Below the pieces are notes generated by a model. That model ran no database searches and was not told the origin of the DNA. It saw only the letters and a program-made list of their open reading frames with translations. This document shows positions 13,326 to 58,143 of a stretch of 64,000 nt of DNA, piece after piece. The stretch lies in IMG/VR virus record IMGVR_UViG_3300032401_000010; one strand, 5' to 3'. Within the stretch, counting starts at the first letter, position 1. Every line of letters starts with the position of its first letter. This stretch comes from a virus. The translations under genes and the position numbers were made by a program.

Positions 13326-14375
13326 TCATTTTGTCAAAAAACCTTCGCCATGAAGTTTTAATATTACTCGCCCAAGTTTATCATGTCTGCGCTCAAACAC
13401 AGGGCGAATAACCACGCCTTCTCGAACGTGTTTGTTATCTAATGTTGAACTGCCTTCAGCAAGCTCATAAGCTTTCTCTTTATTCCATGGCCCCATATAA
13501 AGAACAGGAGCTATAGGCAAATCAAGAGCGTTAGTTATAGAAATAAACTCATCAAAATCTACATACCTCCGAAGATTACGATCATATATATCAAATAATC
13601 TAAGACCAGCCTCACCGCGCTTGACACTATATGGAAAACCTCCGGTGTAACCACATGTCTCACCATAGATAACAATTTTTCTATTGTTAGCCGCCTGCCA
13701 TGACGCAAGCTTATTTTCTAAATTATAAAGCTCAGCGGCCTTGCCCCAGCCACCAATACCACTTTTCTTTACATTAGTTCTAGAACCAATCCATAAACGA
13801 TTATCTTCATAACAAAATCTTGCGTTTTCTCCATGAATCTTTTCGACCATAATTACTTCTTCGCCATCAACAAAAATATTTTTCCAGCGCCTTAATCCTT
13901 CAACATCAGTATACGTAGGCATGTAATGATAATCAGGCTCATTCAGTCTTGTGTCGCCAAAGTTATATCCCTCATCTGGTGGCGGCTCATATTTATCAAT
14001 ACCTAACTTTTCCCTAACGTCTTCGCCTTCAACCATGCCTTCGTCAGCATGAATAAGTAAACCCATGCTAAATACACCACGAAGGCGCCTAGCTTTAATC
14101 CTGCGATACTTTGCTGGTACTTGACCAATGGGAGGCGTAGGCTCTTTTATATTTCCTTCCTTGTCCTTTTTCGGAGGAGGAGCAAGGAAGTAGAATTTTT
14201 CATTATCTGGACATAAACTATCTACCGGAATATAAACAACTAAATCTCCAGGCTTAAATTCTCCAAGTCTAACGATAGCAGGATAGTCCGCTACCTTAGT
14301 AATACCTAAGGTGTCGGCATCGGGATGTTTCGTAATTTCCCCAATACGAACAACTTCTATATGAAATTCGGTCAT
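13326..14375 (-). CDS. RNA ligase with N-terminal tRNA-binding OB (Myf/EMAP-like) domain
   Basis: N-terminus IGEITKHPDADTLGITKV resembles the HP(D/N)ADKL tRNA-binding OB fold. The nucleotidyltransferase motif I is MVEKIHGENARFCY (KxHG(E/T)N, as in Rnl2, DraRnl and NgrRnl). Confidence 0.6.
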   Translation of the reverse strand: MTEFHIEVVRIGEITKHPDADTLGITKVADYPAIVRLGEFKPGDLVVYIPVDSLCPDNEKFYFLAPPPKKDKEGNIKEPTPPIGQVPAKYRRIKARRLRGVFSMGLLIHADEGMVEGEDVREKLGIDKYEPPPDEGYNFGDTRLNEPDYHYMPTYTDVEGLRRWKNIFVDGEEVIMVEKIHGENARFCYEDNRLWIGSRTNVKKSGIGGWGKAAELYNLENKLASWQAANNRKIVIYGETCGYTGGFPYSVKRGEAGLRLFDIYDRNLRRYVDFDEFISITNALDLPIAPVLYMGPWNKEKAYELAEGSSTLDNKHVREGVVIRPVFERRHDKLGRVILKLHGEGFLTK

Positions 14376-14391
14376 TTGTTTTTCTTTTTTG

Positions 14392-14463
14392 AGCTGGTGA
14401 AGGGATTTGAACCCCTGACCGGTAGCTTACAAAACTACTGCTCTACCCCTGAGCTACACCAGC
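14392..14463 (-). tRNA. tRNA-Thr (anticodon UGU); no encoded CCA
   Basis: Minus-strand sequence GCTGGTGTAGCTCAGGGGTAGAGCAGTAGTTTTGTAAGCTACCGGTCAGGGGTTCAAATCCCTTCACCAGCT folds as a cloverleaf: 7-bp acceptor stem, D arm GCTC/GAGC, anticodon stem GTAGT/GCTAC with loop TTTGTAA, and T arm AGGGG-TTCAAAT-CCCTT. Confidence 0.85.
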
Positions 14464-15846: not shown

Positions 15847-16671
15847 TTAGTAAGCAACATTTAACTCTGGCTTCTTTGCTGTGCCTTGAACACGAATTAA
15901 TCTACCAAGACTTCCATCCTCTTCAAAGACTTGAGCCGTTAGAATACCAGTATCATACACAGCCGAGTCTAAATTGCAAGAAAATTTATAGAATTTCGCC
16001 TCGCCGTCTTTTTGAGCGGCATGACCAGAAGCAATATATCCAAAACGACCATCATATTTTTGATGCCACGAATCTCCGCCCTCTTTAGATTTAACTAAAG
16101 TGGATACTCCATTGATATCTTTCCAGATAAGAGGAATCATTCTACCATCTTCATCAACGTCTCTTACATAAACTACCTCAATATCTTTCTTGATATCGCC
16201 CCAGGTATGATGCGGAGTGACGCCAGCATGAACCACGGTAAGACGGGATCCGCTTTCAAACTGAAATGATAAAGCCAAAGGCTGGCGCCTCCACCAAATC
16301 AAAGCCTCACTCGGATCTTTCTTTGACTTCCGAATATGCTTAATTTCATGGTTGCCAGGGACGGCCCAGCCAACGCCACGCTTACGCAGAGTCATAAGCT
16401 CTTGCGTCATAGCCTCGGCTGTTTTCATACCAAAGCCTTTATCATATATGTCCCCTACTGATACAACCCACATTTTTCTGGAAGGATCAATCTCATTCAT
16501 CATCTTTTGAAATTGTTCTGGGTGCTCATGCACGTCTCCAAATACGGCAATTTTAGTGCCGTATGGAACTTCAATGTTGAGGTAATCCTCTGCTTTTGTT
16601 TCTGTTTTGCTCATTTTATTTCCTTCTTTTATGGTTATTTTTGTATAATGTTGATGAAAAAAATAGCTCAA
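15847..16671 (-). CDS. calcineurin-like metallophosphoesterase (lambda-phosphatase/PrpA-like); candidate RNA end-healing phosphatase
   Basis: Motifs VFGDVHEHPEQF (GDxHG-like), GDIYDKG (GDxxDRG) and GNHE. Confidence 0.7.
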   Translation of the reverse strand: MSYFFHQHYTKITIKEGNKMSKTETKAEDYLNIEVPYGTKIAVFGDVHEHPEQFQKMMNEIDPSRKMWVVSVGDIYDKGFGMKTAEAMTQELMTLRKRGVGWAVPGNHEIKHIRKSKKDPSEALIWWRRQPLALSFQFESGSRLTVVHAGVTPHHTWGDIKKDIEVVYVRDVDEDGRMIPLIWKDINGVSTLVKSKEGGDSWHQKYDGRFGYIASGHAAQKDGEAKFYKFSCNLDSAVYDTGILTAQVFEEDGSLGRLIRVQGTAKKPELNVAY

Positions 16672-21854: not shown

Positions 21855-22598
21855 TCAAATTTTTAGTATATGTGGTTTGCCGTCATGACCAATAGCAGCG
21901 TTACTAAAGGTTGTGCTACCTATGGAAAGCACACCATTACTAGGGTGAGCATGACCACACAGATACAATTTGAGTGGATTAGTAAGTTGATATGTTATAG
22001 TAGAGTTAATAAATGGATTGCCGATATGCTGTTCTTTTTTGGCATCATATGTATCAAGAATTCCATCTGGTGGACAATGTGCCACGAGAATATCAAGTCT
22101 ATCAAACATTTTAGCATCCTTAAGTCTTCGCAGAAATGTATTTACTTCTTTGCGAAGTTCATCAGGAGTACATTCAAAATTCCAGCAGTTTCGAATTTTC
22201 GGAACATATGGAAATCCGTACCATACGAAACCTTTATATTCAACTACTTTATTATCTAAATCAATAGCTTCTATCCCATTGTCATTCAAAATCTGACATG
22301 GATTTAGAAAATCATGATTGCCGGAACTCCAAATGAACGGCTTGCCTTTTATCCATTCTTTAATTGCTTTTATATTTGTGAGAAGCCATATCTTTTGGAA
22401 TTCTATCTCAGCTTTTCTTTTAGCGGCGGTTCGATTTGGTTCTAGCTCAATGCCGCGTTTTCCAAATGATTCACTTTTGTTATAAGCAAAAAAGTCTCCA
22501 GAACACACAACTACATCAAACTCCCCTGGGAGATCTATTAGCTGTCCATGGCAATCTGAAATGTGACATATAAGCATAATGTTATTGTAATCATTCAA
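21855..22598 (-). CDS. calcineurin-like metallophosphoesterase (second copy)
   Basis: Motifs ICHISDCHGQ, GDFF, GNHDF and GHAHP. The track starts it at a TTG codon that sits inside a 20-bp tandem repeat. Confidence 0.65.
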   Translation of the reverse strand: MNDYNNIMLICHISDCHGQLIDLPGEFDVVVCSGDFFAYNKSESFGKRGIELEPNRTAAKRKAEIEFQKIWLLTNIKAIKEWIKGKPFIWSSGNHDFLNPCQILNDNGIEAIDLDNKVVEYKGFVWYGFPYVPKIRNCWNFECTPDELRKEVNTFLRRLKDAKMFDRLDILVAHCPPDGILDTYDAKKEQHIGNPFINSTITYQLTNPLKLYLCGHAHPSNGVLSIGSTTFSNAAIGHDGKPHILKI

Positions 22599-24167: not shown

Positions 24168-24986
24168 TTATTCTTTTACAATCAAATCTCTGTTAACTCT
24201 AAATACATCATGCCCTGCATGAAGTATATTTAGAATAAAATTTCTATCAGCAACAAAATTTGGAATATTCATATCGATAATCCATTTGTTACGAGCAACC
24301 TCTCCCTCCTCCGTTCTTAGAATAACAGGAACTTTGTAAGCCGCTGTTCCTAAACGAAATGAATTTGGATAGAATGTTTCATATTCAATATCACATTTGG
24401 TTCTCAAAAGATCTATTTTTTCAGCAGATTTTTTTTCATGCAACATGCCCAAGGTTTGTTTCTTGCCATAAATTTTAGATAGTTCGGATTGTGCCGCCCC
24501 TGTTATTGCGTTTGTAGAACAATCTTGTTGTCGAAATATAAGGTTATTTGCAGCTTCAGTAATTGATGGGACAGCAAAAACTCTAGCATCAAAAATAGCG
24601 TCACCAACTATTTTTGGCGAATTTTCCATTGTGAATAAATTTTTAGCAAATGATAATGTTGTTATACTGGATACAATAGAAACTATTTTTTGTATTCTAT
24701 TTTGAAACCAAGGCTCGGATTCTAAAGACTGATCGTTTCTTATTACAAAAGTTATTTCATCACTTTGGTGATAAGCAAAAATGGCGCCTTCAATTTCCAT
24801 GGCGGCATGAAGCATTGTATTAGCCATAAGACTTAACATCTCATGACAATATGGACGTGGTAAATGTTTTGTTACCCTGCTAAAATTTTTGCCATCAACT
24901 CTTATTATTAATGGCAAACGTTTTATAATTTTATAATCATATGACTGTTCATACAATTTTTGTCTATCAGATAAAGATTCTTGCAT
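24168..24986 (-). CDS. Thg1-like protein (tRNA-His guanylyltransferase family 3'-5' nucleotidyltransferase)
   Basis: Aligns by eye to Thg1: IIRVDGKNFSRVTKHL matches VVRLDGRNFHRFAEKH; FAYHQSDEITFVI matches IAYGQSDEYSFVF; FRQQDCSTNAI matches WRQADCHINNL. Confidence 0.7.
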   Translation of the reverse strand: MQESLSDRQKLYEQSYDYKIIKRLPLIIRVDGKNFSRVTKHLPRPYCHEMLSLMANTMLHAAMEIEGAIFAYHQSDEITFVIRNDQSLESEPWFQNRIQKIVSIVSSITTLSFAKNLFTMENSPKIVGDAIFDARVFAVPSITEAANNLIFRQQDCSTNAITGAAQSELSKIYGKKQTLGMLHEKKSAEKIDLLRTKCDIEYETFYPNSFRLGTAAYKVPVILRTEEGEVARNKWIIDMNIPNFVADRNFILNILHAGHDVFRVNRDLIVKE

Positions 24987-26037: not shown

Positions 26038-27936
26038 TTAAATCATGCCCAGAAATTGTTGCTCAGAAATAAGGGTTGTTCCAAACTTTCTTGCCGCATC
26101 AGCTTTCGAAGAAGTGCTATTGGGATCGGCAATTACAAGATAATGCAATCCTTTGCCTACACTCTTTTTTACTGAACCACCAGCATCTTCAACCATTTTC
26201 TGAAGCGCTGGCCTTGGCTTTTCCATTGAACCAGTAAAACAAAAACTTTTCCCGGTAAGCTTGCCCTTGACTCGCGGTTTAATAGTAACGCCCGCAGCCA
26301 AGATATCTTCTATGCGCTTCTTATTCGTTTTAAGACCGTTTACGAGAGCCTTGGCCCGAATGCTGCCAAAGCCGCCGAGGCTCGCCAAACGGCCCTCAGT
26401 AAGCACTAGCATGGCATCCAGAGTATCATAGCCAGCCTCAACAACAACCTTGGTGGTTGAAGTGCCTACACCATTAATTCCTAGCCCGCCGATTAAGTTC
26501 TCAAGCGAAATTTTTCGATGCCCATTAAGAACATCAATTAGCTTTTGTGCAGAACGTTCTCCCATTCTGTCAAGCTTCTCAAGCTGTACTGCTGTCAACC
26601 TATATAGATCGCCAACATCTTTGACAAGTCCGGCATCAATAGTCTTTTGAAGAATACTCTCGCCCCACTCAAGAATATTCTGTTCGTTGATCCATGTCTT
26701 GAGCCTTCCAATTACTTGGGCTGGACAAGTTTCTTTATTTGTACAACGAAGATATTCTCCATTAAACTCAGTTGGAGAATTACACTCAGGACACTTCTTC
26801 GGCGGCTTATGAACAGAGTCGGTGCCTTTAATAAGTTCTTCAACCCTTGGAATTACATCATTGGCTCGAATGATCAATACTTCAGAACCAACATCAATAC
26901 CAAGTTCTTTAACATAAGAATAATTATAGCAACTAGCTCGCTTAACCTTTGCTCCAAGCAAGTTCACTTCATCGAACTCTGCTACTGGAGTAATAGTCCC
27001 AGTGTTACCAACTTGATCTACGAACCTAATAATCTTTGATGTTGCACTTGGAGCTTCAAACTTAAAAGCGATAGCTCCCTTTGGACGATGATTTTTATCG
27101 CCCAAAGCAAATTGGACAGACATATTATCAACGCGAATAACTACACCGTCGATATCATAATCAAGCGAGTCACGAATTGAACTTTGATATTTATTATATT
27201 GACTAATAACTTCTCGCACTTCTCTATAAACGGCAGAAACAGGAACGTTAAAACCAGTTTTGTTCAGCCATTTAAATTGTTCGCCCTCAGTGTCGAAATC
27301 TTTACCGTTAACAGTATACATCATAACGGTAAGATGCTCAACGCCAATTCCATCAAGTCTTTTTGCTATACCAGATGCTGCATTTCTAGGATTAGCATAC
27401 TCGGGAAAATATTTCTTATTGTCAGACTTCAATAGAATAATTTCACCGCGCACACTTCCTGTAAAGGATTCATTAAGCTTTTGTGGAATGCCTTTCATTC
27501 TAGCAACGTTAGCAGTAATATCCTCGCCTATGTTACCGTCACCACGAGTAACTGCCTGAACGAGCTTTCCTTTTTCCCAAATGGTATTAATTGAAATACC
27601 ATCCAGCTTTTCAGTAAAGAAAATGCCGGAATTTAAATTACGAGAACTTAGGCCTGTACCAGAAGGTGACTGCTGCTCACACTCCTTGGCCCAGGCTTTA
27701 AATTCGTCCTCTGTATTAACTTTATTAAGCGAACCCATTGGAACAGAATGAGAAGCCTTCTTCCATTCAGAAACAACAGGAGCGCCAACGGATGTTACAG
27801 CTGTGTGGTTCGGATCAAGTTTCGAAAGCTCATCAACCCAAGCATCAAAGATAGCATCCGAAACTGTTGGCCCGACATTGTAGTAGTCATGGCGAGCTTT
27901 AACAATTTTATATGCTAGCTCTTTGATTTTAGACAC
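26038..27936 (-). CDS. ligA: NAD+-dependent DNA ligase (LigA)
   Basis: Ia domain at the N-terminus (YKIVKARHDYYNVGPTVSDAIFDAWVDEL), adenylation motif KLDGISI, Cys4 Zn finger (CPECNSP...C...CPAQ), HhH region and a C-terminal BRCT-like tail. Confidence 0.85.
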   Translation of the reverse strand: MSKIKELAYKIVKARHDYYNVGPTVSDAIFDAWVDELSKLDPNHTAVTSVGAPVVSEWKKASHSVPMGSLNKVNTEDEFKAWAKECEQQSPSGTGLSSRNLNSGIFFTEKLDGISINTIWEKGKLVQAVTRGDGNIGEDITANVARMKGIPQKLNESFTGSVRGEIILLKSDNKKYFPEYANPRNAASGIAKRLDGIGVEHLTVMMYTVNGKDFDTEGEQFKWLNKTGFNVPVSAVYREVREVISQYNKYQSSIRDSLDYDIDGVVIRVDNMSVQFALGDKNHRPKGAIAFKFEAPSATSKIIRFVDQVGNTGTITPVAEFDEVNLLGAKVKRASCYNYSYVKELGIDVGSEVLIIRANDVIPRVEELIKGTDSVHKPPKKCPECNSPTEFNGEYLRCTNKETCPAQVIGRLKTWINEQNILEWGESILQKTIDAGLVKDVGDLYRLTAVQLEKLDRMGERSAQKLIDVLNGHRKISLENLIGGLGINGVGTSTTKVVVEAGYDTLDAMLVLTEGRLASLGGFGSIRAKALVNGLKTNKKRIEDILAAGVTIKPRVKGKLTGKSFCFTGSMEKPRPALQKMVEDAGGSVKKSVGKGLHYLVIADPNSTSSKADAARKFGTTLISEQQFLGMI

Positions 27937-27989: not shown

Positions 27990-28820
27990 TCATCGGCACT
28001 CATCCTCCTCCTCATCATAATCCTTCTCATCATCATCTTCATCCTTATCATAATCACCCTCACCCTCATCCTCCTCATTATCATCTTCATAAAGCTCTTC
28101 AGTGGAGCCTTTATCGACAACCTGAATAACCTCAAAGCGGCAAACACGCATTTTGGAAGTTCCGTAAGCCTCTGGAACAGCCACAACATCCCTTGGATTC
28201 ACCTTGATCATGATGCAAACCGGACCAAAGCTCCTAGCGAACTCATAGTTTGCAGCATGAAGTCCATTGCTACACGCATTTTCGCTCTCATCAACCTTGT
28301 TACGGTCCATCTTAACAATCTCGCCAGGAGAATTGTCCATGCTGCCAGAATGACAGTCCATGAAATCCTCTCGAACTCCACGATAGGCAATGAAACAACC
28401 ATCGGGAGTGATAGGATGGCGATTTGCCTCAAGAAATCCGAAAAGCCGAGTTACGGCACGGTTCGACGGATTCTTATTCAGATTCTTCCAGAACAGCAGA
28501 AGCGGCTCATAGGGAAGATTCTGGCTAGAGTAATCAACGATGCGAGCACTAAGCGCAGACGGAATCTTTTCGCCATCGATATGAACCACACCATTGATAA
28601 CTTCCATATGTCCATCAGAAAAAGATGCAATCTGTTTCTTTGGACACACAATACTTGGAATATCATCCCAACGACTTTCGCGAATAGCGCTCAAAGCATC
28701 ATTGAAACGCTTTTCATCATTCGATTTTTGAAGGCTCTTGAACTCGCCGCCAGCAAGGCTAACGGTGAGAACGCCATCTACAAGTGTCCACGGAAGAGGA
28801 ATATTTAATGAAGTGATCAT
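27990..28820 (-). CDS. rIIB-like protein (assigned by synteny), with strongly acidic C-terminal tail
   Basis: Lies immediately downstream of the GHKL-ATPase rIIA-like gene. Length 276 aa with an Asp/Glu-rich tail. No independent motif, so the call rests on synteny only. Confidence 0.35.
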   Translation of the reverse strand: MITSLNIPLPWTLVDGVLTVSLAGGEFKSLQKSNDEKRFNDALSAIRESRWDDIPSIVCPKKQIASFSDGHMEVINGVVHIDGEKIPSALSARIVDYSSQNLPYEPLLLFWKNLNKNPSNRAVTRLFGFLEANRHPITPDGCFIAYRGVREDFMDCHSGSMDNSPGEIVKMDRNKVDESENACSNGLHAANYEFARSFGPVCIMIKVNPRDVVAVPEAYGTSKMRVCRFEVIQVVDKGSTEELYEDDNEEDEGEGDYDKDEDDDEKDYDEEEDECR

Positions 28821-28835: not shown

Positions 28836-31055
28836 CTACCCAACTAGTTTAACCACGTCTGCCGAAAAGTCAAGTCCATTCGCTGCGTCCACAGCGTTAA
28901 TATAGTCGATAAGCGCCTTCTTGCCGACGTTATCGCTGCGAATTACCCACAAATCGATAAATCTGAGCAAAGAATACTTTGTAGTTACAACATTATGCAA
29001 CTTACAAAGATCAGTGTTATTGGCATCAGTCTTTTTTTCTATCTTACGACCTTCAACAAGATCTACGATAGCAATGATATCAGCAGACTCTTTGGATGAT
29101 TTATCTACTAGCTTAAGCTCGGAGATATATTTGCTCATCGGACTGTCTTCATGGAGCTTGCTCAAAAACTCAGTAACAAGCTTGATCATCATATCTTCTA
29201 AACGGAACCGCGATGCACTCTCAATATCGGCTCGCAGCTTATCGATATCCTCAAGCTGTTTAATTTCGTCCACCTTTTCCTGCAACACAACATGCAGTGG
29301 ACGCCAGTTCTTACCAAGGAACTTCTTGTCGGACTCACGCACCCCAATAATAGGATCATCATCGCCAAGAATTGTCTGAGCAAGACGAAGGTTTTCGATA
29401 GTATAGGAATGATTATTATCGGAAGACGGTTTACCCTTATTGTTACCATGGAGCATAACATATGTTCCAGAACCACCATTCTTAATAAGAGTATGTGGCT
29501 CCCAATGATTATCACATTTGCGATTGCTTCTATATGAAAGATCAAATATAAAGCCGTCGAAATCTTCACGACGCTTTGCTCGCTCAAGCTTCTTTCTATC
29601 ACGAATCTCTTTCGGAATGTGAACAACAGAAATGCGGTCATCACAGATTAGGGTTATGTCAAACCCAATATCAACTCCCGAACTACTCTTAGCATTGCGC
29701 CAACGTTCAATACCGGCTTCAACGTTGCCATCAGCGAATGTAATAACCTGAACTTGTTTAATGGCCTTATCAGCAAGAATGATCTTAATGCGATCATGAG
29801 AAACACGTTCGGTAGTAAGATCATTGAAGTAAATGATGCTTTCGTCAGCAACCACTAACTTTGATTCTTGTTTTTTGCTCAAATATTCATTATATTTGCG
29901 ACCCTTTTGCATAAAAAAACTATAAACACTAACGCCAATATCACCAGGAAGATTGAACACAATGTTCTTTACACTGTGACCGTTCCACAACGGGTTAAAA
30001 TTATTCGGCAAAGCACATGCTAGTGTATTGCAAAACTTGTTATAGTAAAGAACTGCGTCCCAATACGATTCATTATTCTCAATTTTCTGCTGAAGATTGA
30101 TGGCAATTTCATTACGGGCCTTCTCAAGCTTACCCAGAATTTGTGCCTGCGTCTTATCATCATACTGAAGCTGTTCTCTGTTGGCCGAAGGTGTAAGTTC
30201 GCCAATATTGAAATACAATCTTAGTTTCTTTGAAAGAAGATCTCTATCCTTAGTAGAAATATTACGAATATGATTAATGTTAATTGGATAACTCATGCCA
30301 TCCAAAATGATTTTTGCAAGGCTATTATAACCATAATTCTCTCTATTACTAGAAGAATACAGCTTCCAATCATCACCTTGCAAAACATCAGCGCCTTCGA
30401 TTTCCCATGCCGGAAGGGGATCGAGTCCGGTCAGAATGGGCCTAACACTATTTGGAACATCATCCCAATATTGAGTTGCAGCAATGGTAGCCGCAATGAA
30501 TGACTGGATATCTCGCTGTTCTACAGGAACGCTAATCTCGGTTCCGCAAGGCTCTGAGGTTTCAGATTCATATACAAGGCGAAGAGAACCTTGCTCAGAT
30601 TCATCAATGTGGGCAATGTATGCTCGCTTGATATTTACCCCGGTTTCGTTTGTGATAGTAACGATTGAAAACTGATTGGTTTTAGCGAATGGCGTCTTAC
30701 TTCCAAGCCCAAAACCACCAGTCTGAATATTATCGTTTCGCTTAGTAGATTGTCCATATCCAAGGTAAACATTCTCAATAATATCAGGAGTGATACCAGG
30801 ACCAAAATCCCTTACCTTCCAATTCCTATCAAGGATGTTTGGAAGATGAATCTGGATAGGCTTATCATTCCCTACTACACGATGAGCATCCCGTGCATTA
30901 CAAGTAATTTCGCGACAGATAGCATTGATAGGATCCGAATACAACATCTCCCGAAGGATCTTCATGACCATCCCGAGATTACCAATACGGAAAGACGACT
31001 GCTTGAGAGTTTGCCCGCCCATTTCAATGTGGCTGTTATTGTCTTCGATTTTCAT
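28836..31055 (-). CDS. GHKL (HSP90/histidine-kinase-like) ATPase protein, rIIA-like
   Basis: N box EITCNARDAH, G1 box DFGPGI and G2 box GGFGLGSK. Length 739 aa, close to T4 rIIA. A good TTGACA-N16-TATTCT promoter and an AGGAG site lie upstream. Confidence 0.55.
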   Translation of the reverse strand: MKIEDNNSHIEMGGQTLKQSSFRIGNLGMVMKILREMLYSDPINAICREITCNARDAHRVVGNDKPIQIHLPNILDRNWKVRDFGPGITPDIIENVYLGYGQSTKRNDNIQTGGFGLGSKTPFAKTNQFSIVTITNETGVNIKRAYIAHIDESEQGSLRLVYESETSEPCGTEISVPVEQRDIQSFIAATIAATQYWDDVPNSVRPILTGLDPLPAWEIEGADVLQGDDWKLYSSSNRENYGYNSLAKIILDGMSYPININHIRNISTKDRDLLSKKLRLYFNIGELTPSANREQLQYDDKTQAQILGKLEKARNEIAINLQQKIENNESYWDAVLYYNKFCNTLACALPNNFNPLWNGHSVKNIVFNLPGDIGVSVYSFFMQKGRKYNEYLSKKQESKLVVADESIIYFNDLTTERVSHDRIKIILADKAIKQVQVITFADGNVEAGIERWRNAKSSSGVDIGFDITLICDDRISVVHIPKEIRDRKKLERAKRREDFDGFIFDLSYRSNRKCDNHWEPHTLIKNGGSGTYVMLHGNNKGKPSSDNNHSYTIENLRLAQTILGDDDPIIGVRESDKKFLGKNWRPLHVVLQEKVDEIKQLEDIDKLRADIESASRFRLEDMMIKLVTEFLSKLHEDSPMSKYISELKLVDKSSKESADIIAIVDLVEGRKIEKKTDANNTDLCKLHNVVTTKYSLLRFIDLWVIRSDNVGKKALIDYINAVDAANGLDFSADVVKLVG
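28846..28873 (-). promoter_or_regulatory. sigma70-like promoter (TTGACT-N16-TAAACT) inside the 3' end of the rIIA-like gene, driving the rIIB-like gene
   Basis: Minus-strand read: TTGACT-TTTCGGCAGACGTGGT-TAAACT, then AGGAGAAAC and the ATG. Confidence 0.5.
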
Positions 31056-31224: not shown

Positions 31225-32925
31225 CTAAGTTTTCTTCATTGTCATAGAGAAAATCTGATTTCCTCTGCCAATAAGCACCTGAGCACCATAGCTAAACAGT
31301 TTCATATCACCTGTAACAGCTGTATCATCGATCACTCTTAGAGCGCTAGAATCCTTTTTGTTATGAAACACTTCAATATCTTCATCATCATTTAAGTGAA
31401 TACATACTCCGTTATCTAAGGCCGCAAAGTTGATACCAGAAGTATATGTAATGTTGTCAATCTTCCTAATGTCATATGTTTTAAAATCATCAGCGAACCT
31501 AAATATTAACTTATCGTATTGAGATTTGTTATCAATACAAACAACCATAAGAATTTTGCTTGAATATTTAGCGTCTATAATACGATAATGATCAAGTTCT
31601 TTGATATGAATTTGTTCATGATGAGTAGATGCCGGAAATATAGAAACATAAATTGCGCCAAGTAAGTTTTGAATTAGAACTCCATCAAATACTTTTGAGG
31701 CATGCTCCATAATCTGTGCAACTATAACTGGCGATGCAATAATATTATTTCCGACTTCAATCAATTGAATCTCAACTAAGTCTGTGCTATTTTTTATATA
31801 AAGTCTTCCATTACAATCCATAACATCTGTAGCAAACAAATCTAGAATAATATCGCCGCCAGTGATAGCATTTTTTAATTTGAGGCGATTATTTTCTGTA
31901 TAAGCAACTACTGGGTGTTGATTTTTATTTGTTATACCAATTTTCGCTGATACAGGAATATTTCTTAGAGCAATCTTGTCATTCAACAATAAATTTCCGT
32001 TATCCAATAAAATTGCTTTAGTAGATCCTATCCAGGCGGTCTCAATAATATTTCCGATGAACTCAAATAATTGTTTGATATCAAAATTATTACTACCAAC
32101 AGTTTTGTGAACGGTGGTTATAATTTGTGCAACAGCATTCAAATCAATTGGAGGAGGTAAACGTTTTCCATCTTCCAATATTGCTTTGAACCACTTGCGA
32201 TAAATTTCTGGTATCACATCAAATGGTAAGCATGATTTTGGAATTGATACATCAGAATTAAATATTGATATGTTTTGTTTCATACGATCATCAAAATCTT
32301 TTACAGCAGTATGTTTTCCTTTGTACGGATGTATTCCAATCATCAACATCATTCCAATTACAGCAAAAGAAAACCAATCAGTCTCTTTGCTGAACTTAGT
32401 TGAATGACGATCTCTTATGTTATCCATAATTACAGTAGCAGGATAACTAAAAGTTTGATAACTATCTACATCAATAGCATAAATCTCATCAAATTTTTGA
32501 GAAGAAAGAAAGTTTAATTCATTTAAATCAACAATAAGAACATTATGTTCATGGATATGTTGCACAATTTCTTGAAGTTTTCTTAGAAGATCAAGAGATA
32601 TCTTTGGAGATATTCCGTTTCTGTCACGAAAACTCTTGGTAAACAACTGGCACAATGCGTATGTATCGGAAACATAACGCATTGTATAACCAATAGGGGC
32701 ACCATTAGTTGTATTAGAATTGATAACTTGTTCTGGTTTAATAATATTTGGATGTTTTAAACTGGACAGCTCTTGTATTTTACCAAGAGGGATCATGTTC
32801 TTTGGATCTTGGTAAATCTTAAAAGCAGTATTGCCTTGAATATAAATATCTCCCTGACCTCCTGAAGCAAGGAAGTCACGATTGGTAAGAGAAATATCAC
32901 CTTTGCCTTTTACGAAGATTTTCAT
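31225..32925 (-). CDS. protein kinase-like protein (atypical Ser/Thr kinase fold) with C-terminal beta-rich domain
   Basis: Glycine-loop-like ASGGQGDIY, an AFKIY lysine region and a catalytic-loop-like HNVLIVDLNELN. Confidence 0.45.
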   Translation of the reverse strand: MKIFVKGKGDISLTNRDFLASGGQGDIYIQGNTAFKIYQDPKNMIPLGKIQELSSLKHPNIIKPEQVINSNTTNGAPIGYTMRYVSDTYALCQLFTKSFRDRNGISPKISLDLLRKLQEIVQHIHEHNVLIVDLNELNFLSSQKFDEIYAIDVDSYQTFSYPATVIMDNIRDRHSTKFSKETDWFSFAVIGMMLMIGIHPYKGKHTAVKDFDDRMKQNISIFNSDVSIPKSCLPFDVIPEIYRKWFKAILEDGKRLPPPIDLNAVAQIITTVHKTVGSNNFDIKQLFEFIGNIIETAWIGSTKAILLDNGNLLLNDKIALRNIPVSAKIGITNKNQHPVVAYTENNRLKLKNAITGGDIILDLFATDVMDCNGRLYIKNSTDLVEIQLIEVGNNIIASPVIVAQIMEHASKVFDGVLIQNLLGAIYVSIFPASTHHEQIHIKELDHYRIIDAKYSSKILMVVCIDNKSQYDKLIFRFADDFKTYDIRKIDNITYTSGINFAALDNGVCIHLNDDEDIEVFHNKKDSSALRVIDDTAVTGDMKLFSYGAQVLIGRGNQIFSMTMKKT

Positions 32926-32928
32926 TTC

Positions 32929-33126
32929 TCAATTTCCGTAAAGGGCTTCAGATATTTTATCTATTAAATCTCGTTCAACATTAGATATTTTCCAATAAGG
33001 CTTATCCATTTGATCTCTAATAACATCGGCTTCATGTTCGTCACCTCTTCCTGTCGCCATAAGAACATTAAGATCTAATAACAATCTCAGATATTTTTCA
33101 AATGGTTTATTCATTTTCGTCCTCAA
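32929..33126 (-). CDS. hypothetical small protein
   Basis: 65-aa ORF. Confidence 0.3.
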   Translation of the reverse strand: MRTKMNKPFEKYLRLLLDLNVLMATGRGDEHEADVIRDQMDKPYWKISNVERDLIDKISEALYGN

Positions 33127-34816
33127 AAGAAGTTAGAGCATCATGGTATTCATCGCGCTCTCTTAATATTTTTTGCGCTTTTGCCAGACCTCCATTGTCT
33201 GGAAGCAAAGCTCTCTTAGGATTTGGCAAGATCATCGCTAAGTAAAACGCTTGTTCCTCGGTTAATTGACTTACTTGGCAATGAAAATAATGATCGGCGG
33301 CTCTCTCAATTCCGTATACATCACTTCCGAATTCGATTACATTTAAATATAGCTCAAGAATTTGTTCCTTGGTCAAACATTTTTCGAGAGGTATCGTTAA
33401 AAATATCTCATGTATTTTTCTGAGCAGAGTTTTTTCTCTGGTGAGCCACAAATTTTTTGCTAACTGCATTGTAATTGTGGATCCGCCGCGCATAAAACGA
33501 CCCAATTGTAAATTAGCAATGAGCGAATTTTGAATTGCTGAATCCAAAACTCCATTGTGTTTATAAAATCCTCGGTCTTCTAATGTAACAAATGCATTAG
33601 TTACATAAATCGGAATGTATTGTAATGGCAACCAACCTGTTCCAGCTGGATTAGCATCATTTCCTTTGATAATTAATCTTTGGTTGCGATTGCCTTTAGA
33701 GTCATAGGCCATATAGCTTACAACATTTTCTTGCAAGAACAACCCGTTACAAGTTTCCCAAGAACATTTATATCTTGGAGGCATTGTAATCGGAGGTTTA
33801 GAACAAGCGTAGTCACATTTGTTCTTCAAAGTAAATATAGGTTTTGGTTTTATTTGAATCTCAAATGATAAATCACCAGAGTAATTTCCAATCGTTTGCT
33901 TTAAAGCGTCCGGTAAAGGCTCTGGTAATATGGATACCCATGTGTTGCAACTTTGGGTTCCGCTTACATGATAGTTAGTTAAATCGATATCAAGATGAAC
34001 ATAATCTTCTGACCAACCTAATACAGCATCAATTTTATTTAATGATTTAATAAATGTGACAGCAACATTTTTGAATATCACCGACTCAGTAGAGATCCAC
34101 GGATGATTTATCGTTAAAAATTCTGATTCAAATGATATGTCAGAGCCATTTTTAACTGCTGTAATGTTTTTAAATTCAGCTGGTCCTAATTTAATGTTGC
34201 CAGCTTTAATTAATTCTGATTCCTTGTGTGCATAAAAATTATTAATAGTTATCTTTTGATAGCTATCTATCTTCGGAAGTTTGAAAGGAATAGTAATATC
34301 TGTTTCTAATTTTGAAATTCTAATAGATTTATCATCCTTAATTATATTTCCATCGAATGCTAAAATATGTTTGCCGTGGTATATAATATCTGCGTCATCA
34401 AAATGAGCAATGCCATTTAAATATGAAACGTTATGAAGAGTAGCTTTGTCATCTCCTTTTATAATGTATACTTGAAAATTAGATACAGTTATATTATTTA
34501 GAATGGACGCCTGAGTTGTTCCACTTTTTGTTTCACCTGGGTTGATGAACAAATTAACTCTGCCATCTATTATGGAAATTGGATTATAAAAACTGATAAT
34601 AACATTAATTGCTTTGGCATTAATGTTATTACGTTTAATATCTACATTTTTAGCAGCCAAGCAAATTAATAAGCCTGGATCATAACAATTTGTTGTATAT
34701 TTTATTTCTCCGATTGATACTTTATATTTGTTCTCAATATATTTTTTGGCAAGCGATGGAGCAGCGGCTATTAAACCGGCCGTCACCAAAATACTTATTA
34801 TGAATTTCTTATTCAT
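33107..34816 (-). CDS. secreted protein with C-terminal peptidoglycan glycosyltransferase (GT51, PBP transglycosylase-like) domain
   Basis: Signal peptide MNKKFIISILVTAGLIAAAPSLA. GT51 motifs EDRGFYKHNGV (EDxxFxxHxG) and RGGSTITMQLAKN (GGSTITQQ). Confidence 0.6.
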   Translation of the reverse strand: MNKKFIISILVTAGLIAAAPSLAKKYIENKYKVSIGEIKYTTNCYDPGLLICLAAKNVDIKRNNINAKAINVIISFYNPISIIDGRVNLFINPGETKSGTTQASILNNITVSNFQVYIIKGDDKATLHNVSYLNGIAHFDDADIIYHGKHILAFDGNIIKDDKSIRISKLETDITIPFKLPKIDSYQKITINNFYAHKESELIKAGNIKLGPAEFKNITAVKNGSDISFESEFLTINHPWISTESVIFKNVAVTFIKSLNKIDAVLGWSEDYVHLDIDLTNYHVSGTQSCNTWVSILPEPLPDALKQTIGNYSGDLSFEIQIKPKPIFTLKNKCDYACSKPPITMPPRYKCSWETCNGLFLQENVVSYMAYDSKGNRNQRLIIKGNDANPAGTGWLPLQYIPIYVTNAFVTLEDRGFYKHNGVLDSAIQNSLIANLQLGRFMRGGSTITMQLAKNLWLTREKTLLRKIHEIFLTIPLEKCLTKEQILELYLNVIEFGSDVYGIERAADHYFHCQVSQLTEEQAFYLAMILPNPKRALLPDNGGLAKAQKILRERDEYHDALTSFEDENE

Positions 34817-36734
34817 TAGGCATCAATTCTTTTAGCTCTTCAATTAGTCCGCTAGAAAGAACAGGCCAGCGGCACCAAGTCTTTGGGTCAAGATTCTCGT
34901 CATCATAATGAAAACTTACAGCATATCGTTCGCGCTTCCATTGGTTTCTACACCACAAAGTAAAGAACTTTATAATCCATTTCCTAGCTTGCTCCTCAGT
35001 CATATCACCTGACTGCATAAGTAATTGAAAAATTTCTACCGGAGATCTCTTATCTCTAATAGAAAGCTTTTCAATCTTATCCAAAACAGGATATGGCATC
35101 AAATCATCTTCATCAGACTGTTTCTTATCTGCTGGACGAAGCTCTGCCGTTGGAACAAGCTCCTTAACAACGGACTTTAATCCAGGCCACTTTCTTTCAT
35201 TTATATATCCTCGCTCGCCTCGTTCGTAAACATAAGATAACCATTCAAGAATGAACGCTTTATCAATACCAGCGATAGGGCTTAGACCACCGCAAGTATC
35301 CCCATCCATCGTAGCATACCCTACAGCCGCTTCGCTTCTGTTGCTTGTGGATATTAGGAGTGAGCCATTGATATTAGCAAGCATCCAAATGCCAGGAGCC
35401 CTTGCCCGAGCCTGAATATTTTGCAAAGCAATATCATTTTCTTCCCAATTCAATTGTTTACCAGTAGCAAATTCAATCTTGTCAGTATAAGATTTAATTA
35501 CATCATCAACCGACCAGTTAATAAAATTGGCCTCAATACTTTCTGCTAAGCTCTTTGCGCTATGGAAAGTATCTACCCCGCTATTCTTTGTCCCTTGATA
35601 TACGCAAGTTAGCATCTTATTGAATTGCACTTTATGCAAATCGTTTTCTGCTAACTTATCATACATCATTCGAATAAGAACTGCGCAAGCCGAAGAATCA
35701 GCACCTCCACTTAATGATAACATGAAGCCACTCGAATGTGACTTCCTCATATAATCCCACAAGCCAAGAGTTGCGGCTTTAGCAAACTCTTCGTGCTTAG
35801 AAAAGCTTTGATTCAATATTTTATTACCAACTGCTTGCTTTACACTCCAATGTTCCTTAAATCCATTTACACTTGCTACTACGCACCCATCACTAAAGAC
35901 CGGTTTGAAACTGGCAAGCTTTGTTTGTAGAACCCTTGTTTTATCTATGTCAACTACTGCTGCGCACAAGGTGTAGTTTTTGAAAGAAAACCTTTCTCCG
36001 CATGCAACAATTTCTCCGGCAGAACCAATAATAGTATCACCTTCGTATATTGCTCTTCCTGCTTCGTTACCAAGCAGGTTTGAATATACATATGTTACAT
36101 TTTGAGAACGCGAGCCTTCAAGTACGAATCGCTTTCGAATCTCATGCTTTCCAAATGCAAAGTGAGATGCGCTGGGGTTTAAAATGATATCAGCGCCACG
36201 TCTTGATAGATCAATACCTGGACGATCTACGACCCAAGCATCCTCGCATATTTCGAATCCAACAAATATTCCGCCAATATTAAATATCAAATCACCAATA
36301 GGCGGAGCACCAGTAGTAGAATCTAATATCTGACCTTTTGGCCAAGGTTTAAACCATCTTGGCTCATAATGAATTCCATCGCCAGCAAGATGTTGCTTTG
36401 GAACGATGCCGAGAATCTGACCACGATGAACAAGTGCTACACAATTATAAAGGGCATTCCCTATATTTAATGGGAAGCCGATAGAGAATATTACATCAAG
36501 ATTTTTTGTTTGATTAACAATATCTGTTAAAACAGCCTGGGCCGTGTCCTGAACGAACGGGGCTTGAAAGGCGTCTTCGCAACCGTATCCAGTAATGCAA
36601 AGCTCTGGCAAACATAGTAAACGAACGTACTCCCTTTCTGCCTCGTTGATAACAGCCAGAATATTCTTTTGGTTGCCAGCCCAATCAAGAGGGGTTTGAT
36701 TCAAAGCCGCAGCAGCAACCCTAATCCTTTTCAT
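34809..36734 (-). CDS. nadE: glutamine-dependent NAD+ synthetase (NadE with N-terminal nitrilase/CN-hydrolase domain)
   Basis: CN-hydrolase start (RVAAAALNQTPLDWAGNQKNI ... catalytic Cys in FEICED) and the NAD-synthetase PP-loop SLSGGADSS. Confidence 0.8.
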   Translation of the reverse strand: MKRIRVAAAALNQTPLDWAGNQKNILAVINEAEREYVRLLCLPELCITGYGCEDAFQAPFVQDTAQAVLTDIVNQTKNLDVIFSIGFPLNIGNALYNCVALVHRGQILGIVPKQHLAGDGIHYEPRWFKPWPKGQILDSTTGAPPIGDLIFNIGGIFVGFEICEDAWVVDRPGIDLSRRGADIILNPSASHFAFGKHEIRKRFVLEGSRSQNVTYVYSNLLGNEAGRAIYEGDTIIGSAGEIVACGERFSFKNYTLCAAVVDIDKTRVLQTKLASFKPVFSDGCVVASVNGFKEHWSVKQAVGNKILNQSFSKHEEFAKAATLGLWDYMRKSHSSGFMLSLSGGADSSACAVLIRMMYDKLAENDLHKVQFNKMLTCVYQGTKNSGVDTFHSAKSLAESIEANFINWSVDDVIKSYTDKIEFATGKQLNWEENDIALQNIQARARAPGIWMLANINGSLLISTSNRSEAAVGYATMDGDTCGGLSPIAGIDKAFILEWLSYVYERGERGYINERKWPGLKSVVKELVPTAELRPADKKQSDEDDLMPYPVLDKIEKLSIRDKRSPVEIFQLLMQSGDMTEEQARKWIIKFFTLWCRNQWKRERYAVSFHYDDENLDPKTWCRWPVLSSGLIEELKELMPNE

Positions 36735-40194: not shown

Positions 40195-40989
40195 TTAGCG
40201 AAAGAACTTCTCTGTTGTGGAGAACTCTACGTTCTTCGCCTTCATTTCCTTGAAGAAATCTGCCTGAAAATTCTCAAATCCAGGCACCGGGCTCATCGTA
40301 TCTTCTAGAATAACAAGCTTCTGAAGATATTTTTCATCACCAAAGGCTTCTGCAATGTCACGGGCAGTAAACGCCACACAATGAGAGCTTGCTTCGCCGG
40401 AAATGAGAACCTTGTCGGCCTTCAACAATGTATCAATCAAGCGAGTATTGATTTGCGTACTGGGATCATCCGGTCGTGGAACGTCTGCCTTGATCGCAGA
40501 GTAATGTTCGGTAAAGATGTTACTTCCCTTAGTAACAAAATTCACTACAGCGAACTCTTCCTCCCACTCCTTAAATGATTTGAACAGATCAGTAACAACT
40601 CCGTGACCATCCGATCCGATCAAACAATGAGGCGGCCACACACAAAGAACGTATCGATTATTCTTTGCGAGAGTACCGGTATACTCCATGGCATGCTTCT
40701 GCCACTTAGGGTTTGTTGCCATCCACTTACCAGATTCAACATCTTTATAAGAGATGACAGTGAAAGGACTCGGATGATCACCACTGCTGTTCTTCCAGAA
40801 TAAAGGATTGGCAATATGAAGAAGATGATGAGAATCTAATGTTACATGAATATCATCCAGCTTGCTTCGATTCTTCTTTACGAAGGCGGCAAGCCGAGCC
40901 ATATCATCCTTGGCTCCGGGAACATGCAACGGGGCACCATCAAGAACGAAATCGTTTTGCGGGTCAATTACAAGCAGATCTATTTTCAT
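40195..40989 (-). CDS. isochorismatase-family hydrolase (nicotinamidase PncA-like)
   Basis: N-terminal VIDPQNDF signature and a Cys in the catalytic region (SSHCVAF). Confidence 0.6.
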   Translation of the reverse strand: MKIDLLVIDPQNDFVLDGAPLHVPGAKDDMARLAAFVKKNRSKLDDIHVTLDSHHLLHIANPLFWKNSSGDHPSPFTVISYKDVESGKWMATNPKWQKHAMEYTGTLAKNNRYVLCVWPPHCLIGSDGHGVVTDLFKSFKEWEEEFAVVNFVTKGSNIFTEHYSAIKADVPRPDDPSTQINTRLIDTLLKADKVLISGEASSHCVAFTARDIAEAFGDEKYLQKLVILEDTMSPVPGFENFQADFFKEMKAKNVEFSTTEKFFR

Positions 40990-45774: not shown

Positions 45775-46003
45775 ATAGACGCTCTACTTCGTTTAACGCA
45801 GCATTCAATACTGTAAAATGGCCCTTCGAATATAAAGCATATAACGCACTAAAAATTCCTACAGGCCCACTGTCAATATATTGTCTTGGATCTTTAGCTC
45901 TAATATTTTCCATACGTTTACGAAAACCTTCAATCATTTCTTTTGTTATAGGAGAGAATTGAGATTTTGGATCTGGTTTATAAACAGTCGTTATTTTTTC
46001 CAA
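45722..46003 (-). CDS. hypothetical small protein
   Basis: 93-aa ORF. Confidence 0.35.
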   Translation of the reverse strand: MEKITTVYKPDPKSQFSPITKEMIEGFRKRMENIRAKDPRQYIDSGPVGIFSALYALYSKGHFTVLNAALNEVERLYEFFESNKPSENNKSSI

Positions 46004-46572
46004 GGGATTGCATCTCTCATGTTGTAATCATAAATGAATACATCTTTGGTAATACATTTCTGTATAAGCTTTTCAATTTCTTCCCAGCTTCCTCCAGCAA
46101 GCCCGCATCCGAATCTTGGAGCGACCATTGTAGCATTAAGCTTAATCAAATAAACATTTAGTTTATTGAGACAGCTTTCTACAGCCTCATATCTAATTGG
46201 AGGTTGATATTGATACTGATCTGATTCGCCATGTTGGAGACGATTGCTACTTCCGTAACCAACTTGTCCAATCATGTTGGCTACCCAAACGCCAGAAATT
46301 CTTTTAATAGGGTCACTTATAAATTCCTGCTCTGTAAATCCAGCCTCAACAACATTTATTAGCTGAATGTTTCCAAGAGCGAATGGATCAATTTGAGCTT
46401 TGTATTGTCCTTTATACCAAGAGCGATATGCTTTTTCTGGCTCGGACCATTTTTTTGATACTGCTATAACAAACCCAGCGCCCCAACCACCGGCATCATT
46501 ACAGACATGAGCAATGATTTTATTTCCTTCCCCAACAGGTTCTGTGGCATCACCTTCTAAGTAGTGGATCAT
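45991..46572 (-). CDS. macro-domain-like protein (ADP-ribose binding/processing)
   Basis: IIAHVCNDAGGWGAGFVIAV resembles the macro NAAN...GGGV motif. The start was placed at the internal Met (MIHYLEG), because the track's N-terminal extension is encoded by the adjacent GC-rich island. Confidence 0.4.
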   Translation of the reverse strand: MIHYLEGDATEPVGEGNKIIAHVCNDAGGWGAGFVIAVSKKWSEPEKAYRSWYKGQYKAQIDPFALGNIQLINVVEAGFTEQEFISDPIKRISGVWVANMIGQVGYGSSNRLQHGESDQYQYQPPIRYEAVESCLNKLNVYLIKLNATMVAPRFGCGLAGGSWEEIEKLIQKCITKDVFIYDYNMRDAIPWKK

Positions 46573-46779
46573 TTGTTTCCTTAAGTTGTACCGCAGATCC
46601 GCAGAGCGCGCGAAGCCCTTGCTCGACGCACTCGGCAGTGAAATTGTACCAACCGACGTACCGCTCCGGGTGGTCACCGCTCTCGATGTCGGCAAGCTCC
46701 CGGTCCCGCAGCGCGGCGCGTGTCGGCTCTGTCAGCCACTCGCGGGCAGGCTCCGCCTGATCTGCCGTTACGTGTTGCT

Positions 46780-48327: not shown

Positions 48328-48543
48328 AACAATGTCAATATATTCACTAAGTCAAAAACTAGGAAAAATTAATTTGGCTGGCACTTCAGGTACATAATCT
48401 GTTGGGAGCACACCGGTACCGTCGCATACGCCACAAGTTTCGCATGGATGACAGTCGCCAACATGCCAGCCACGCCCTTTGCACTAATGACACCGTACCT
48501 TATTTGCTTGATCCTTATGCTCGTCCATCACACATTCTCCGTG

Positions 48544-48635
48544 TCTCAAGTTCTGGAGTTGAACCAGAATCTCCCGGCCTATGGTCCGTACCGAAGTGCG
48601 TAGCACCGGAGTTCTACCGATTGAACTAACTTGAG
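48544..48635 (-). ncRNA. tRNA-like structured RNA (canonical acceptor, D and T arms; non-canonical anticodon/variable region)
   Basis: Minus strand: CTCAAGT-TA-GTTC-AATCGGTA-GAAC ... TCTGG-TTCAACT-CCAGA-ACTTGAG-A. The 41-nt central segment has no clean 5-bp/7-nt anticodon arm. Locally GC-rich and free of ORFs. Confidence 0.4.
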
Positions 48636-57934: not shown

Positions 57935-58143
57935 TATTTGTTAAACCATACAACATGAGTATATGTTTGATCTATGTTTGGTAGATCTATTTGTTCGTCA
58001 GTCATCTCTGACGATGTAGCATAATAGCCATTGCCATCATAACCATTATAACTACCAGATCGCACTGCTTTAGAAAACTCTTCCAAGGTCATGTGTTCCC
58101 CGTAATCAGGTATTGGTTCCATCCGTCTCGGCTTACTGAGCAA
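57934..58143 (-). CDS. hypothetical small protein
   Basis: 69-aa ORF. Confidence 0.3.
   Translation of the reverse strand: MLSKPRRMEPIPDYGEHMTLEEFSKAVRSGSYNGYDGNGYYATSSEMTDEQIDLPNIDQTYTHVVWFNK

Follow-up and report, generated by a model that had tools for sequence, protein, structure and literature searches.

Peptidoglycan glycosyltransferases of family GT51 are described from class A penicillin-binding proteins (PBPs), such as PBP1A of Aquifex aeolicus (PDB 2oqo; TIGR02074), and from MtgA (S. aureus, PDB 3vmq and 3hzs; TIGR02070). In canonical GT51 enzymes a transmembrane helix sits right beside the membrane-embedded jaw of the catalytic domain, and the fold itself resembles that of lambda lysozyme (structures 2oqo and 2olu). 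An N-terminal transmembrane helix followed by a long antiparallel amphipathic sheet is the layout of AsmA-like or repeating-beta-groove proteins (AsmA, TamB and YhdP; BLTP1, VPS13 and ATG2) and of the Lpt beta-jellyroll. Phage biology treats peptidoglycan as something that phages cut, at entry and at lysis. The window studied here, the whole of a 64,000-nucleotide stretch of viral DNA (IMG/VR record IMGVR_UViG_3300032401_000010), carries a gene whose product joins a predicted membrane anchor and beta-groove domain to a C-terminal GT51 domain.

33107..34816, minus strand: whole GT51 gene (membrane anchor, beta-groove domain and GT51 domain), ATG start, 569 amino acids, taken from the list of open reading frames (ORFs)

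The reading we favour, with moderate confidence and from sequence, is that of an active monofunctional GT51 peptidoglycan polymerase, anchored in the inner membrane and facing the periplasm, which would act on host lipid II during infection; confidence in its biological purpose is much lower than in its molecular function. The family to which it belongs is conserved in many huge phages and undescribed. Literature searches found no account of a phage-encoded GT51 or peptidoglycan polymerase, nor of AsmA-GT51 fusions, and no mention of a phage GT51 was found in papers on huge phages, jumbo phages and phage G. The only mention was an entry, 'Murein polymerase (GT51)', in a table of carbohydrate-active enzymes of viral contigs (PMC9602057).

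The catalytic domain

33137..33724, minus strand: GT51 peptidoglycan glycosyltransferase domain, residues 365-560
33551..33580, minus strand: GT51 motif 1, EDRGFYKHNG, residues 413-422, with the catalytic Glu E413; E413, D414, F417, H420 and G422 invariant
33452..33490, minus strand: GT51 motif 2, RGGSTITMQLAKN, residues 443-455; G444, S446, T447, M450, Q451 and N455 invariant
33407..33421, minus strand: GT51 motif 3, RKIHE, with the second catalytic Glu E470; R466, K467 and E470 invariant; aligns with RKIKE of Aquifex PBP1A
33341..33370, minus strand: GT51 motif 4, KEQILELYLN; K483, E488, Y490 and N492 invariant

The catalytic domain is a bona fide member of GT51 by profile, motifs and fold. 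Transgly (PF00912) is the sole Pfam match of the protein, covering residues 394-537 and spanning 15-158 of the 178 profile positions; its score of 164 bits (E=3e-48) exceeds the gathering score of 27. The NCBIfam matches are to biosynthetic GT51 families only (PBP1A family, MtgA, PbpC and PBP1B), at the level of the domain and under the equivalog cut-offs. A profile built from 48 homologs aligns with the glycosyltransferase domain of Aquifex PBP1A (PDB 2oqo) at E=2e-55, with nearly all of the crystallised construct covered, and the lysozyme-like all-alpha head-and-jaw fold of the family is present. No match to SLT, GH23, GH24, GH25, GH104 or any lytic transglycosylase or lysozyme was obtained with Pfam, NCBIfam or PHROG, and the only PHROG match, phrog_33002 (function unknown), runs through the GT51 region. 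A sequence-only reading of this DNA had already proposed a phage protein with a GT51 domain, and this proposal is borne out by the Transgly match and the intact motifs: EDRGFYKHNG and RGGSTITMQLAKN are present exactly as it quoted them, and the hidden Markov model matches fall in GT51 families and not in the lytic transglycosylase or lysozyme families that it had named as the contrary outcome.

Invariance of the motif residues was counted over the 48 aligned homologs, whose mean identity is about 30%. When the window protein is set against a homolog of 76% identity, the ratio of nonsynonymous to synonymous substitution rates (dN/dS) comes to 0.05 over the GT domain and to 0.20 over the N-terminal domain (N-domain). 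Because the motifs are invariant at such a low identity and the ratio for the GT domain is 0.05, the catalytic machinery must be under conserving selection. The Met in GGSTITMQ, where the canonical sequence is GGSTITQQ, was considered as a sign of an unusual active site and rejected, as ordinary bacterial PBPs and MtgA proteins often show this Met too, in a survey whose scan pattern itself selected for that variant.

The protein is nonetheless neither an MtgA equivalog nor a class A PBP. Against TIGR02070 it scores 146.3 bits where the equivalog cut-off is 182.65, it is 569 residues long where MtgA has about 240, some 330 residues of beta-groove stand between its anchor and GT51, and it is phage-encoded. 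Unlike the class A PBPs it is without a transpeptidase (PF00905) and has its GT51 domain at the C-terminus and not the N-terminus, the chain ending 9 residues past the GT domain (residue 560 of 569); against TIGR02074 it reaches 158.8 bits, the cut-off being 508.75.

The predicted N-terminal anchor and the cysteines

34760..34804, minus strand: N-terminal hydrophobic segment, residues 5-19, FIISILVTAGLIAAA; predicted uncleaved signal anchor, from the N-termini of the 48 homologs and the AlphaFold2 helix

The window protein starts with MNKK and continues with the 15 hydrophobic residues FIISILVTAGLIAAA, the conserved Pro20 and then a motif xxx[KR]xY[IV]E. All 48 homologs share a K/R-rich start followed by 18-22 hydrophobic residues and a conserved Pro, which in most of them, as an uncounted impression, would fall at +1 of any site of the AxA type, and signal peptidase I leaves sites with Pro at that position uncut. 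AlphaFold2 gives residues 3-30 as a single helix. Because of the Pro at +1, this single helix and the analogy with AsmA, an uncleaved membrane anchor is more likely than a cleaved signal peptide. Of the earlier suggestion of a secreted protein with a signal peptide, the hydrophobic N-terminus stands, and cleavage and secretion probably do not.

Two of the cysteines, Cys290 and Cys334, are invariant in the 48 homologs, as fits a disulfide in an oxidising compartment. A further two, one at the N-domain's end (Cys338) and one in the GT domain (Cys480), occur together in 42 of the 48, are jointly missing from five and stand unpaired in one, and this covariation suggests a disulfide between the two domains, from which we infer an oxidising, periplasmic location and a rigid coupling of groove and enzyme. 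Across the family alignment three Cys pairs covary (138/157, 290/334 and 338/480). In the clade of the window protein the 138/157 pair has been lost and C44/C52 and C351/C356 have been gained, changes that suggest disulfide rewiring in a periplasmic protein.

The beta-groove domain

33797..34726, minus strand: predicted beta-groove domain, residues 31-340; some 19 strands, antiparallel and each 6-12 residues long, whose faces alternate between hydrophobic and polar
33725..33796, minus strand: linker of low confidence, residues 341-364, with the clade-specific Cys pair C351/C356; predicted local distance difference test (pLDDT) below 50 at residues 347-353

Nothing else in the protein is as unusual as the beta-groove domain, which makes up about 60% of it; residues 31-340 had been overlooked in the sequence-only reading. 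The full-length AlphaFold2 model, made from the 48-sequence alignment (pLDDT 87.2, predicted TM-score 0.79), lays the chain out as a helix (residues 3-30), some 19 strands (residues 34-332), a loop (residues 341-364) and the GT51 beta-hairpin plus helical domain (residues 365-566). A model of the N-domain alone has a pLDDT of 83.4, with residues 340-364 below 50, and in these predictions the anchor and the 19-strand amphipathic meander come out with high confidence. Hydrophobicity averaged over the alignment alternates on every strand and shows a polar kink in mid-strand, a pattern that fits a modelled sheet with a single hydrophobic face, folded as a groove. Within the domain lies a conserved junction module marked by HPW, C290, W293, LPxPLP, C334 and C338.

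By Foldseek the N-domain-only model finds BLTP1 in the PDB at E=2e-5, TamB at 2.6e-3, LptC at probability 1.0 and Atg2 at probability 0.98, all with low TM-scores, and a search of BFVD finds Chorein_N (VPS13-like) proteins of giant viruses at E=1.8e-8. Low TM-scores are expected of long twisted sheets. At the level of fold, then, the nearest relatives of the modelled N-domain would be lipid-transfer grooves (BLTP1, TamB, LptC/LptD and Atg2). In sequence the likeness does not appear: the N-domain alone has no Pfam match even at E<=10, a hidden Markov model search with its profile against PDB sequences gave no meaningful match, and hhalign against a single E. coli AsmA sequence gave E=0.24, which is not significant. 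The stretch in that last alignment sets the transmembrane helix and the following motif P-x-x-x-[RK]-x-Y upon the AsmA transmembrane segment and NPNDFRDYMVKQ, where NPNDFRDY of AsmA resembles the phage motif. In predicted fold and in layout the phage protein is like the AsmA clan, although that clan's profiles (AsmA, DUF748 and TamB) do not pick it up. It also differs from the AsmA-like, BLTP and Lpt proteins in being much shorter (its approximately 19 strands are far below YhdP and TamB), with no significant sequence similarity to them; its C-terminus is an enzyme and not an outer-membrane contact region, and its cargo, if there is any, would be a polyprenyl-linked precursor and not a phospholipid or lipopolysaccharide.

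A set of giant proteins of 3,000-6,800 residues (P0194, P0216, P0220, P0221, P0226, P0228, P0231, P0237 and P0238) carries 9 to 25 matches each, in tandem, to positions of about 40-280 in the N-domain profile, and the groove strand unit may be a widespread repeat. Among them P0221 has weak matches to a phage membrane-piercing-spike-like beta-helical domain and to LptD_N, and P0237 has weak PG_binding_4 and PDZ matches.

Bacterial relatives

A scan of species genomes returned bacterial proteins of 600-810 residues with a long N-terminal extension and a C-terminal GT51 domain, from metagenome-assembled genomes labelled Oligoflexia/Bdellovibrionota, 'Deltaproteobacteria' and Bacteroidota (examples are P0257 and L062:4588-6978). 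Several carry N-terminal Pfam matches, under the gathering scores, to DUF748 (E=1.6e-8, 1e-6 and 8e-6) and AsmA (5.6e-5), and a precomputed annotation places DUF748/AsmA domains on P0257-P0284. These DUF748/AsmA-Transgly proteins have the same architecture as the phage protein, namely an anchor, a beta-rich N-domain, a junction module of the form C...W...LP...C and a C-terminal GT51; they differ in that their groove is 40-240 residues longer and in reaching DUF748/AsmA matches, which are absent from the phage proteins. Their annotations go no further than 'transglycosylase domain-containing' or 'penicillin-binding' protein, and no functional study of them was found.

Profile-profile alignment joins the phage and bacterial families over their full length (probability 100, E=3.5e-89), and once the GT domain is taken from the phage profile residues 230-362 still match the bacterial family (probability 96.5, E=1e-9). 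In a neighbour-joining tree of GT51 domains, a rough one without support values, the 48 phage copies are monophyletic and the bacterial DUF748/AsmA-Transgly proteins adjoin them. This tree position and the shared upstream module suggest a common ancestry of the two groups, and by these sequence comparisons the phage protein counts as a shortened form of the uncharacterised AsmA-like-GT51 architecture.

The bacterial genes lie in chromosomal, housekeeping surroundings, with leuS (in three Oligoflexia-type assemblies), thrA/thrC, kup, macB and a histidine kinase as neighbours. The bacterial GT51 gene comes immediately after leuS in L064; in L074 and L077 the two are kept apart by an ORF of about 370-390 codons on the opposite strand. 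The adjacency to leuS is a conserved chromosomal synteny of an uncharacterised wall-synthesis protein.

Distribution and phage origin

The N-domain profile, made from the N-terminal 385 residues, was run against 1.84 billion representatives at 50% identity. Matches at E<=1e-3 numbered 229, which puts the family at 229 clusters or more, and 114 of them reached E<=1e-30. Because nearly all of the 229 are 525-615 residues long with the N-domain at the N-terminus, the architecture of the family is fixed. A word-indexed search of 5.8 billion proteins found many full-length relatives of 525-610 residues with Transgly as their only domain, several of them on contigs of 390-463 kb, and a scan of IMG/VR gave 47 loci, many of them within viral contigs 200-530 kb long. 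One genome from each of 185,579 prokaryotic species was also scanned, and none yielded a full-length copy. In the GenBank phage collection no isolate or deposited genome carries the family, tblastn there returning the GT51 domain alone (24-32% coverage), mostly from evident bacterial contaminant records; megablast of 20 kb around the gene against the same phages gave no match, and there is thus no close phage at the DNA level.

The genes on either side are on the same strand, as are nearly all ORFs of at least 100 codons in the window.

34809..36734, minus strand: upstream gene, glutamine-dependent NAD+ synthetase (NadE); Pfam CN_hydrolase and NAD_synthase, NCBIfam NF010588
32929..33114, minus strand: downstream ORF of 61 codons, its ATG overlapping the GT51 stop by 8 nucleotides; no family match
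31225..32925, minus strand: downstream kinase-like protein of 566 amino acids; Pfam Pkinase at 31.0 bits, marginal and just under the gathering score of 31.7
28836-31055: rIIA, phrog_612, E=1.8e-82
27990-28820: rIIB, phrog_609, E=9e-61

At the upstream junction the nadE stop codon and the GT51 start overlap by 8 nucleotides, and because of this overlap the two genes are probably co-transcribed and translationally coupled. A scan for promoters and terminators around the GT51 gene and between the genes gave no excess over chance. The GT51 gene and its immediate neighbours are the same in three other assemblies, with identical GT51 DNA in all three, and the identical 569-residue protein recurs in several metagenome assemblies; the 61-codon ORF was called in three independent assemblies. 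The rIIA and rIIB genes of the window are situated 2 kb downstream of the GT51 gene. The homolog of 76% identity (L001, a contig of 232 kb) keeps the order of the window: NadE, GT51, kinase, rIIA, rIIB, ligase. The window also encodes three RNA ligases, one of them T4 Rnl1-like, as well as a Thg1-like protein, HNH endonucleases and an NAD-dependent DNA ligase. Given the gene overlaps, the nearby rIIA and rIIB, the synteny in the 76% relative and the recurrence across assemblies, the GT51 gene is an integral phage gene and no assembly artefact.

The 61-codon ORF and the kinase-like gene trail the GT51 gene here and in the 76% relative, and are absent from that place in distant family members. 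The kinase-like protein also has weak matches to the kinase regions of LanKC and LanL.

Proposed mechanism

A huge phage would make the GT51 enzyme during infection, and its uncleaved N-terminal helix would anchor it in the host cytoplasmic membrane with the remainder in the periplasm. Residues 31-340 would form an amphipathic beta-meander of the hydrophobic-groove type seen in AsmA/TamB, Lpt and the BLTP/VPS13 lipid-transfer proteins, and the junction module, which a C338-C480 disulfide probably links to the catalytic domain, would bear the complete GT51 domain at its far end. There the enzyme may polymerise host lipid II into glycan strands, and having no transpeptidase of its own would leave cross-linking to host enzymes. 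The groove may hold the undecaprenyl tails of the substrate and of the growing chain, or else may position the catalytic domain with respect to membrane and sacculus. As for purpose, the enzyme could put peptidoglycan synthesis under phage control in a long infection, for maintenance, repair or enlargement of the wall, or alternatively could redirect the flux of lipid II away from host division. Of the three roles that the sequence-only reading put forward (a repurposed lysin, a cell-wall remodelling factor and a decoy for moenomycin-like inhibitors), none finds direct support; the second is compatible with all this.

An intact wall polymerase under purifying selection in huge phages implies that some phages build or redirect wall. 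The fusion of GT51 with an AsmA/BLTP-like groove links bridge-like lipid transfer with the use of lipid II, fields so far unconnected, and several bacterial phyla have it too, in chromosomal proteins that are uncharacterised; a protein of 569 residues would be a compact model for asking whether beta-groove proteins handle polyprenyl-linked glycolipids. At about 0.48 nm per strand, by our own estimate, the 19 modelled strands would span several nanometres. It is conceivable, if doubtful, that the groove is a conduit or cradle which lifts lipid II and the lipid-anchored strand off the membrane so that GT51 polymerises at or near the sacculus, and that huge phages took the protein from Bdellovibrionota- or Bacteroidota-type bacteria for building, patching or enlarging wall independently of the host synthases. 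If true this would be a mode of wall synthesis undescribed for any GT51 or SEDS enzyme.

Several observations weigh against an anchored polymerase with a lipid-binding groove. The anchor (residues 5-19) is not adjacent to the GT domain (from about residue 365), a beta domain of 310 residues standing between them, and the DUF748 and AsmA scan matches of the bacterial homologs are all below the Pfam gathering scores. Furthermore, when all ORFs within 10 kb were clustered over 50 loci, no conserved transpeptidase, SEDS, Mur, flippase, holin or endolysin gene was found. Two clusters of ORFs of about 80 codons, present in 19 and 14 loci and in the examples antisense to or beside the GT51 gene, were taken as shadow ORFs; these aside no cluster occurs in more than 13 of the 50 loci, and the annotated ones include a deoxynucleoside monophosphate kinase, a VWA protein, a 2H/Acb1-like protein and a nucleoside deoxyribosyltransferase. 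The context offers no hint of a physiological role.

Alternative explanations

The N-domain could be no lipid conduit at all and instead a rigid spacer, a module for contact with peptidoglycan or the outer membrane, or an oligomerisation module, doing no more than position or regulate an otherwise ordinary MtgA-like enzyme, and although such a module is compatible with an active enzyme we consider it unlikely. Moving GT51 off the membrane conflicts with catalysis at the interface unless the lipid travels along; in the models one strand face is consistently hydrophobic and no second sheet is predicted over it; and the bacterial relatives match AsmA-clan models. A sink or decoy, in which the capture or consumption of lipid II, or the binding of a lipid-II-directed or moenomycin-like inhibitor, was selected over the polymer product, would account for a protein with neither a transpeptidase domain nor a partner gene, for a hydrophobic groove that could sequester polyprenyl lipids, and for a gene placed among those of the early host-takeover type (rIIA/B, NAD and nucleotide metabolism, anti-defence-like). 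In one variant, polymerisation without cross-linking would drain the precursor of the host elongasome and divisome and could, at a chosen moment, stop division or make the wall weaker. Single-gene lysis proteins, by analogy, target MraY, MurA or MurJ, and beta-lactams cause futile cycling. Were the enzyme indeed to drain or reroute lipid II, this would be a new kind of phage interference with a validated antibiotic target. We nevertheless think a sink or decoy distinctly unlikely: plain sequestration needs no invariant catalytic motifs, though a consuming sink would, and chromosomal bacterial homologs of the same architecture argue that the ancestral job was constructive wall synthesis.

That the GT51 fold has been turned to a muralytic or strand-releasing use at entry or lysis, as the sequence-only reading had also put forward, draws on the wall-degrading enzymes that phages typically encode and on the lysozyme-like fold, and is highly improbable when every polymerase motif is invariant under strong purifying selection, no lysozyme or SLT match exists, the protein has a membrane anchor and its nearest relatives are chromosomal, synthase-like bacterial proteins. 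The gene is also far from any recognisable lysis or structural module; such genes of the family are found in early or metabolic-type regions, outside structural or lysis modules, and this location counts weakly against a role in the virion or in lysis. A bacterial origin, through mis-assembly or mis-binning of the DNA into a viral contig, would be in keeping with the many GenBank-phage GT51 matches that are plainly bacterial contaminant records, these being the majority, and with the one homolog labelled Pacearchaeota at NCBI. It is scarcely credible for a gene embedded among phage genes with 8-nucleotide overlaps on both sides, which has the same neighbours in four independent assemblies, recurs at the 47 IMG/VR loci and has no full-length counterpart in the prokaryotic species genomes.

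Further features of the window

An unusually dense set of RNA-repair genes lies on the minus strand at 8954-10165, 13326-14375, 58133-59470, 24168-24986, 15847-16671, 21855-22598 and 45991-46695. Its members are the T4 Rnl1-like ligase, an RNA ligase of phrog_968, an RNA ligase fused to a tRNA-binding domain, the Thg1-like tRNA-His guanylyltransferase and three phosphoesterases/phosphatases, and the set suggests a counter-measure against host anticodon nucleases.

An isochorismatase-like protein at 40195-40989 on the minus strand could be a nicotinamidase, its scores being under the Pfam cut-off, and the NAD-dependent DNA ligase at 26038-27936 is one ORF of 632 codons in the window. In the 76% relative this ligase (L001 16910-18862) is split into an 88-codon Nlig-Ia ORF and one of 529 codons. 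Together with NadE, the isochorismatase-like protein and the ligase resemble the set of the 'NAD-jumbo phages' (Li et al. 2024, PMC11662467).

The sole tRNA confirmed in the window by both ARAGORN and Rfam is a tRNA-Thr at 14391-14463. ARAGORN also calls a 93-nucleotide tRNA-Arg(ACG) at 48543-48635 on the minus strand, which the Rfam tRNA model misses at its gathering score, and this call could be an intron-containing tRNA, an atypical one or a false positive. A MoxR-like AAA ATPase stands beside a DUF2201 metallopeptidase/VWA protein (5184-6512 and 6809-8134, minus strand), a conserved phage pair (phrog_1297/phrog_1314), and a membrane-scaffold protein of the SPFH/Band 7 type, 600 amino acids long, is encoded at 861-2663.

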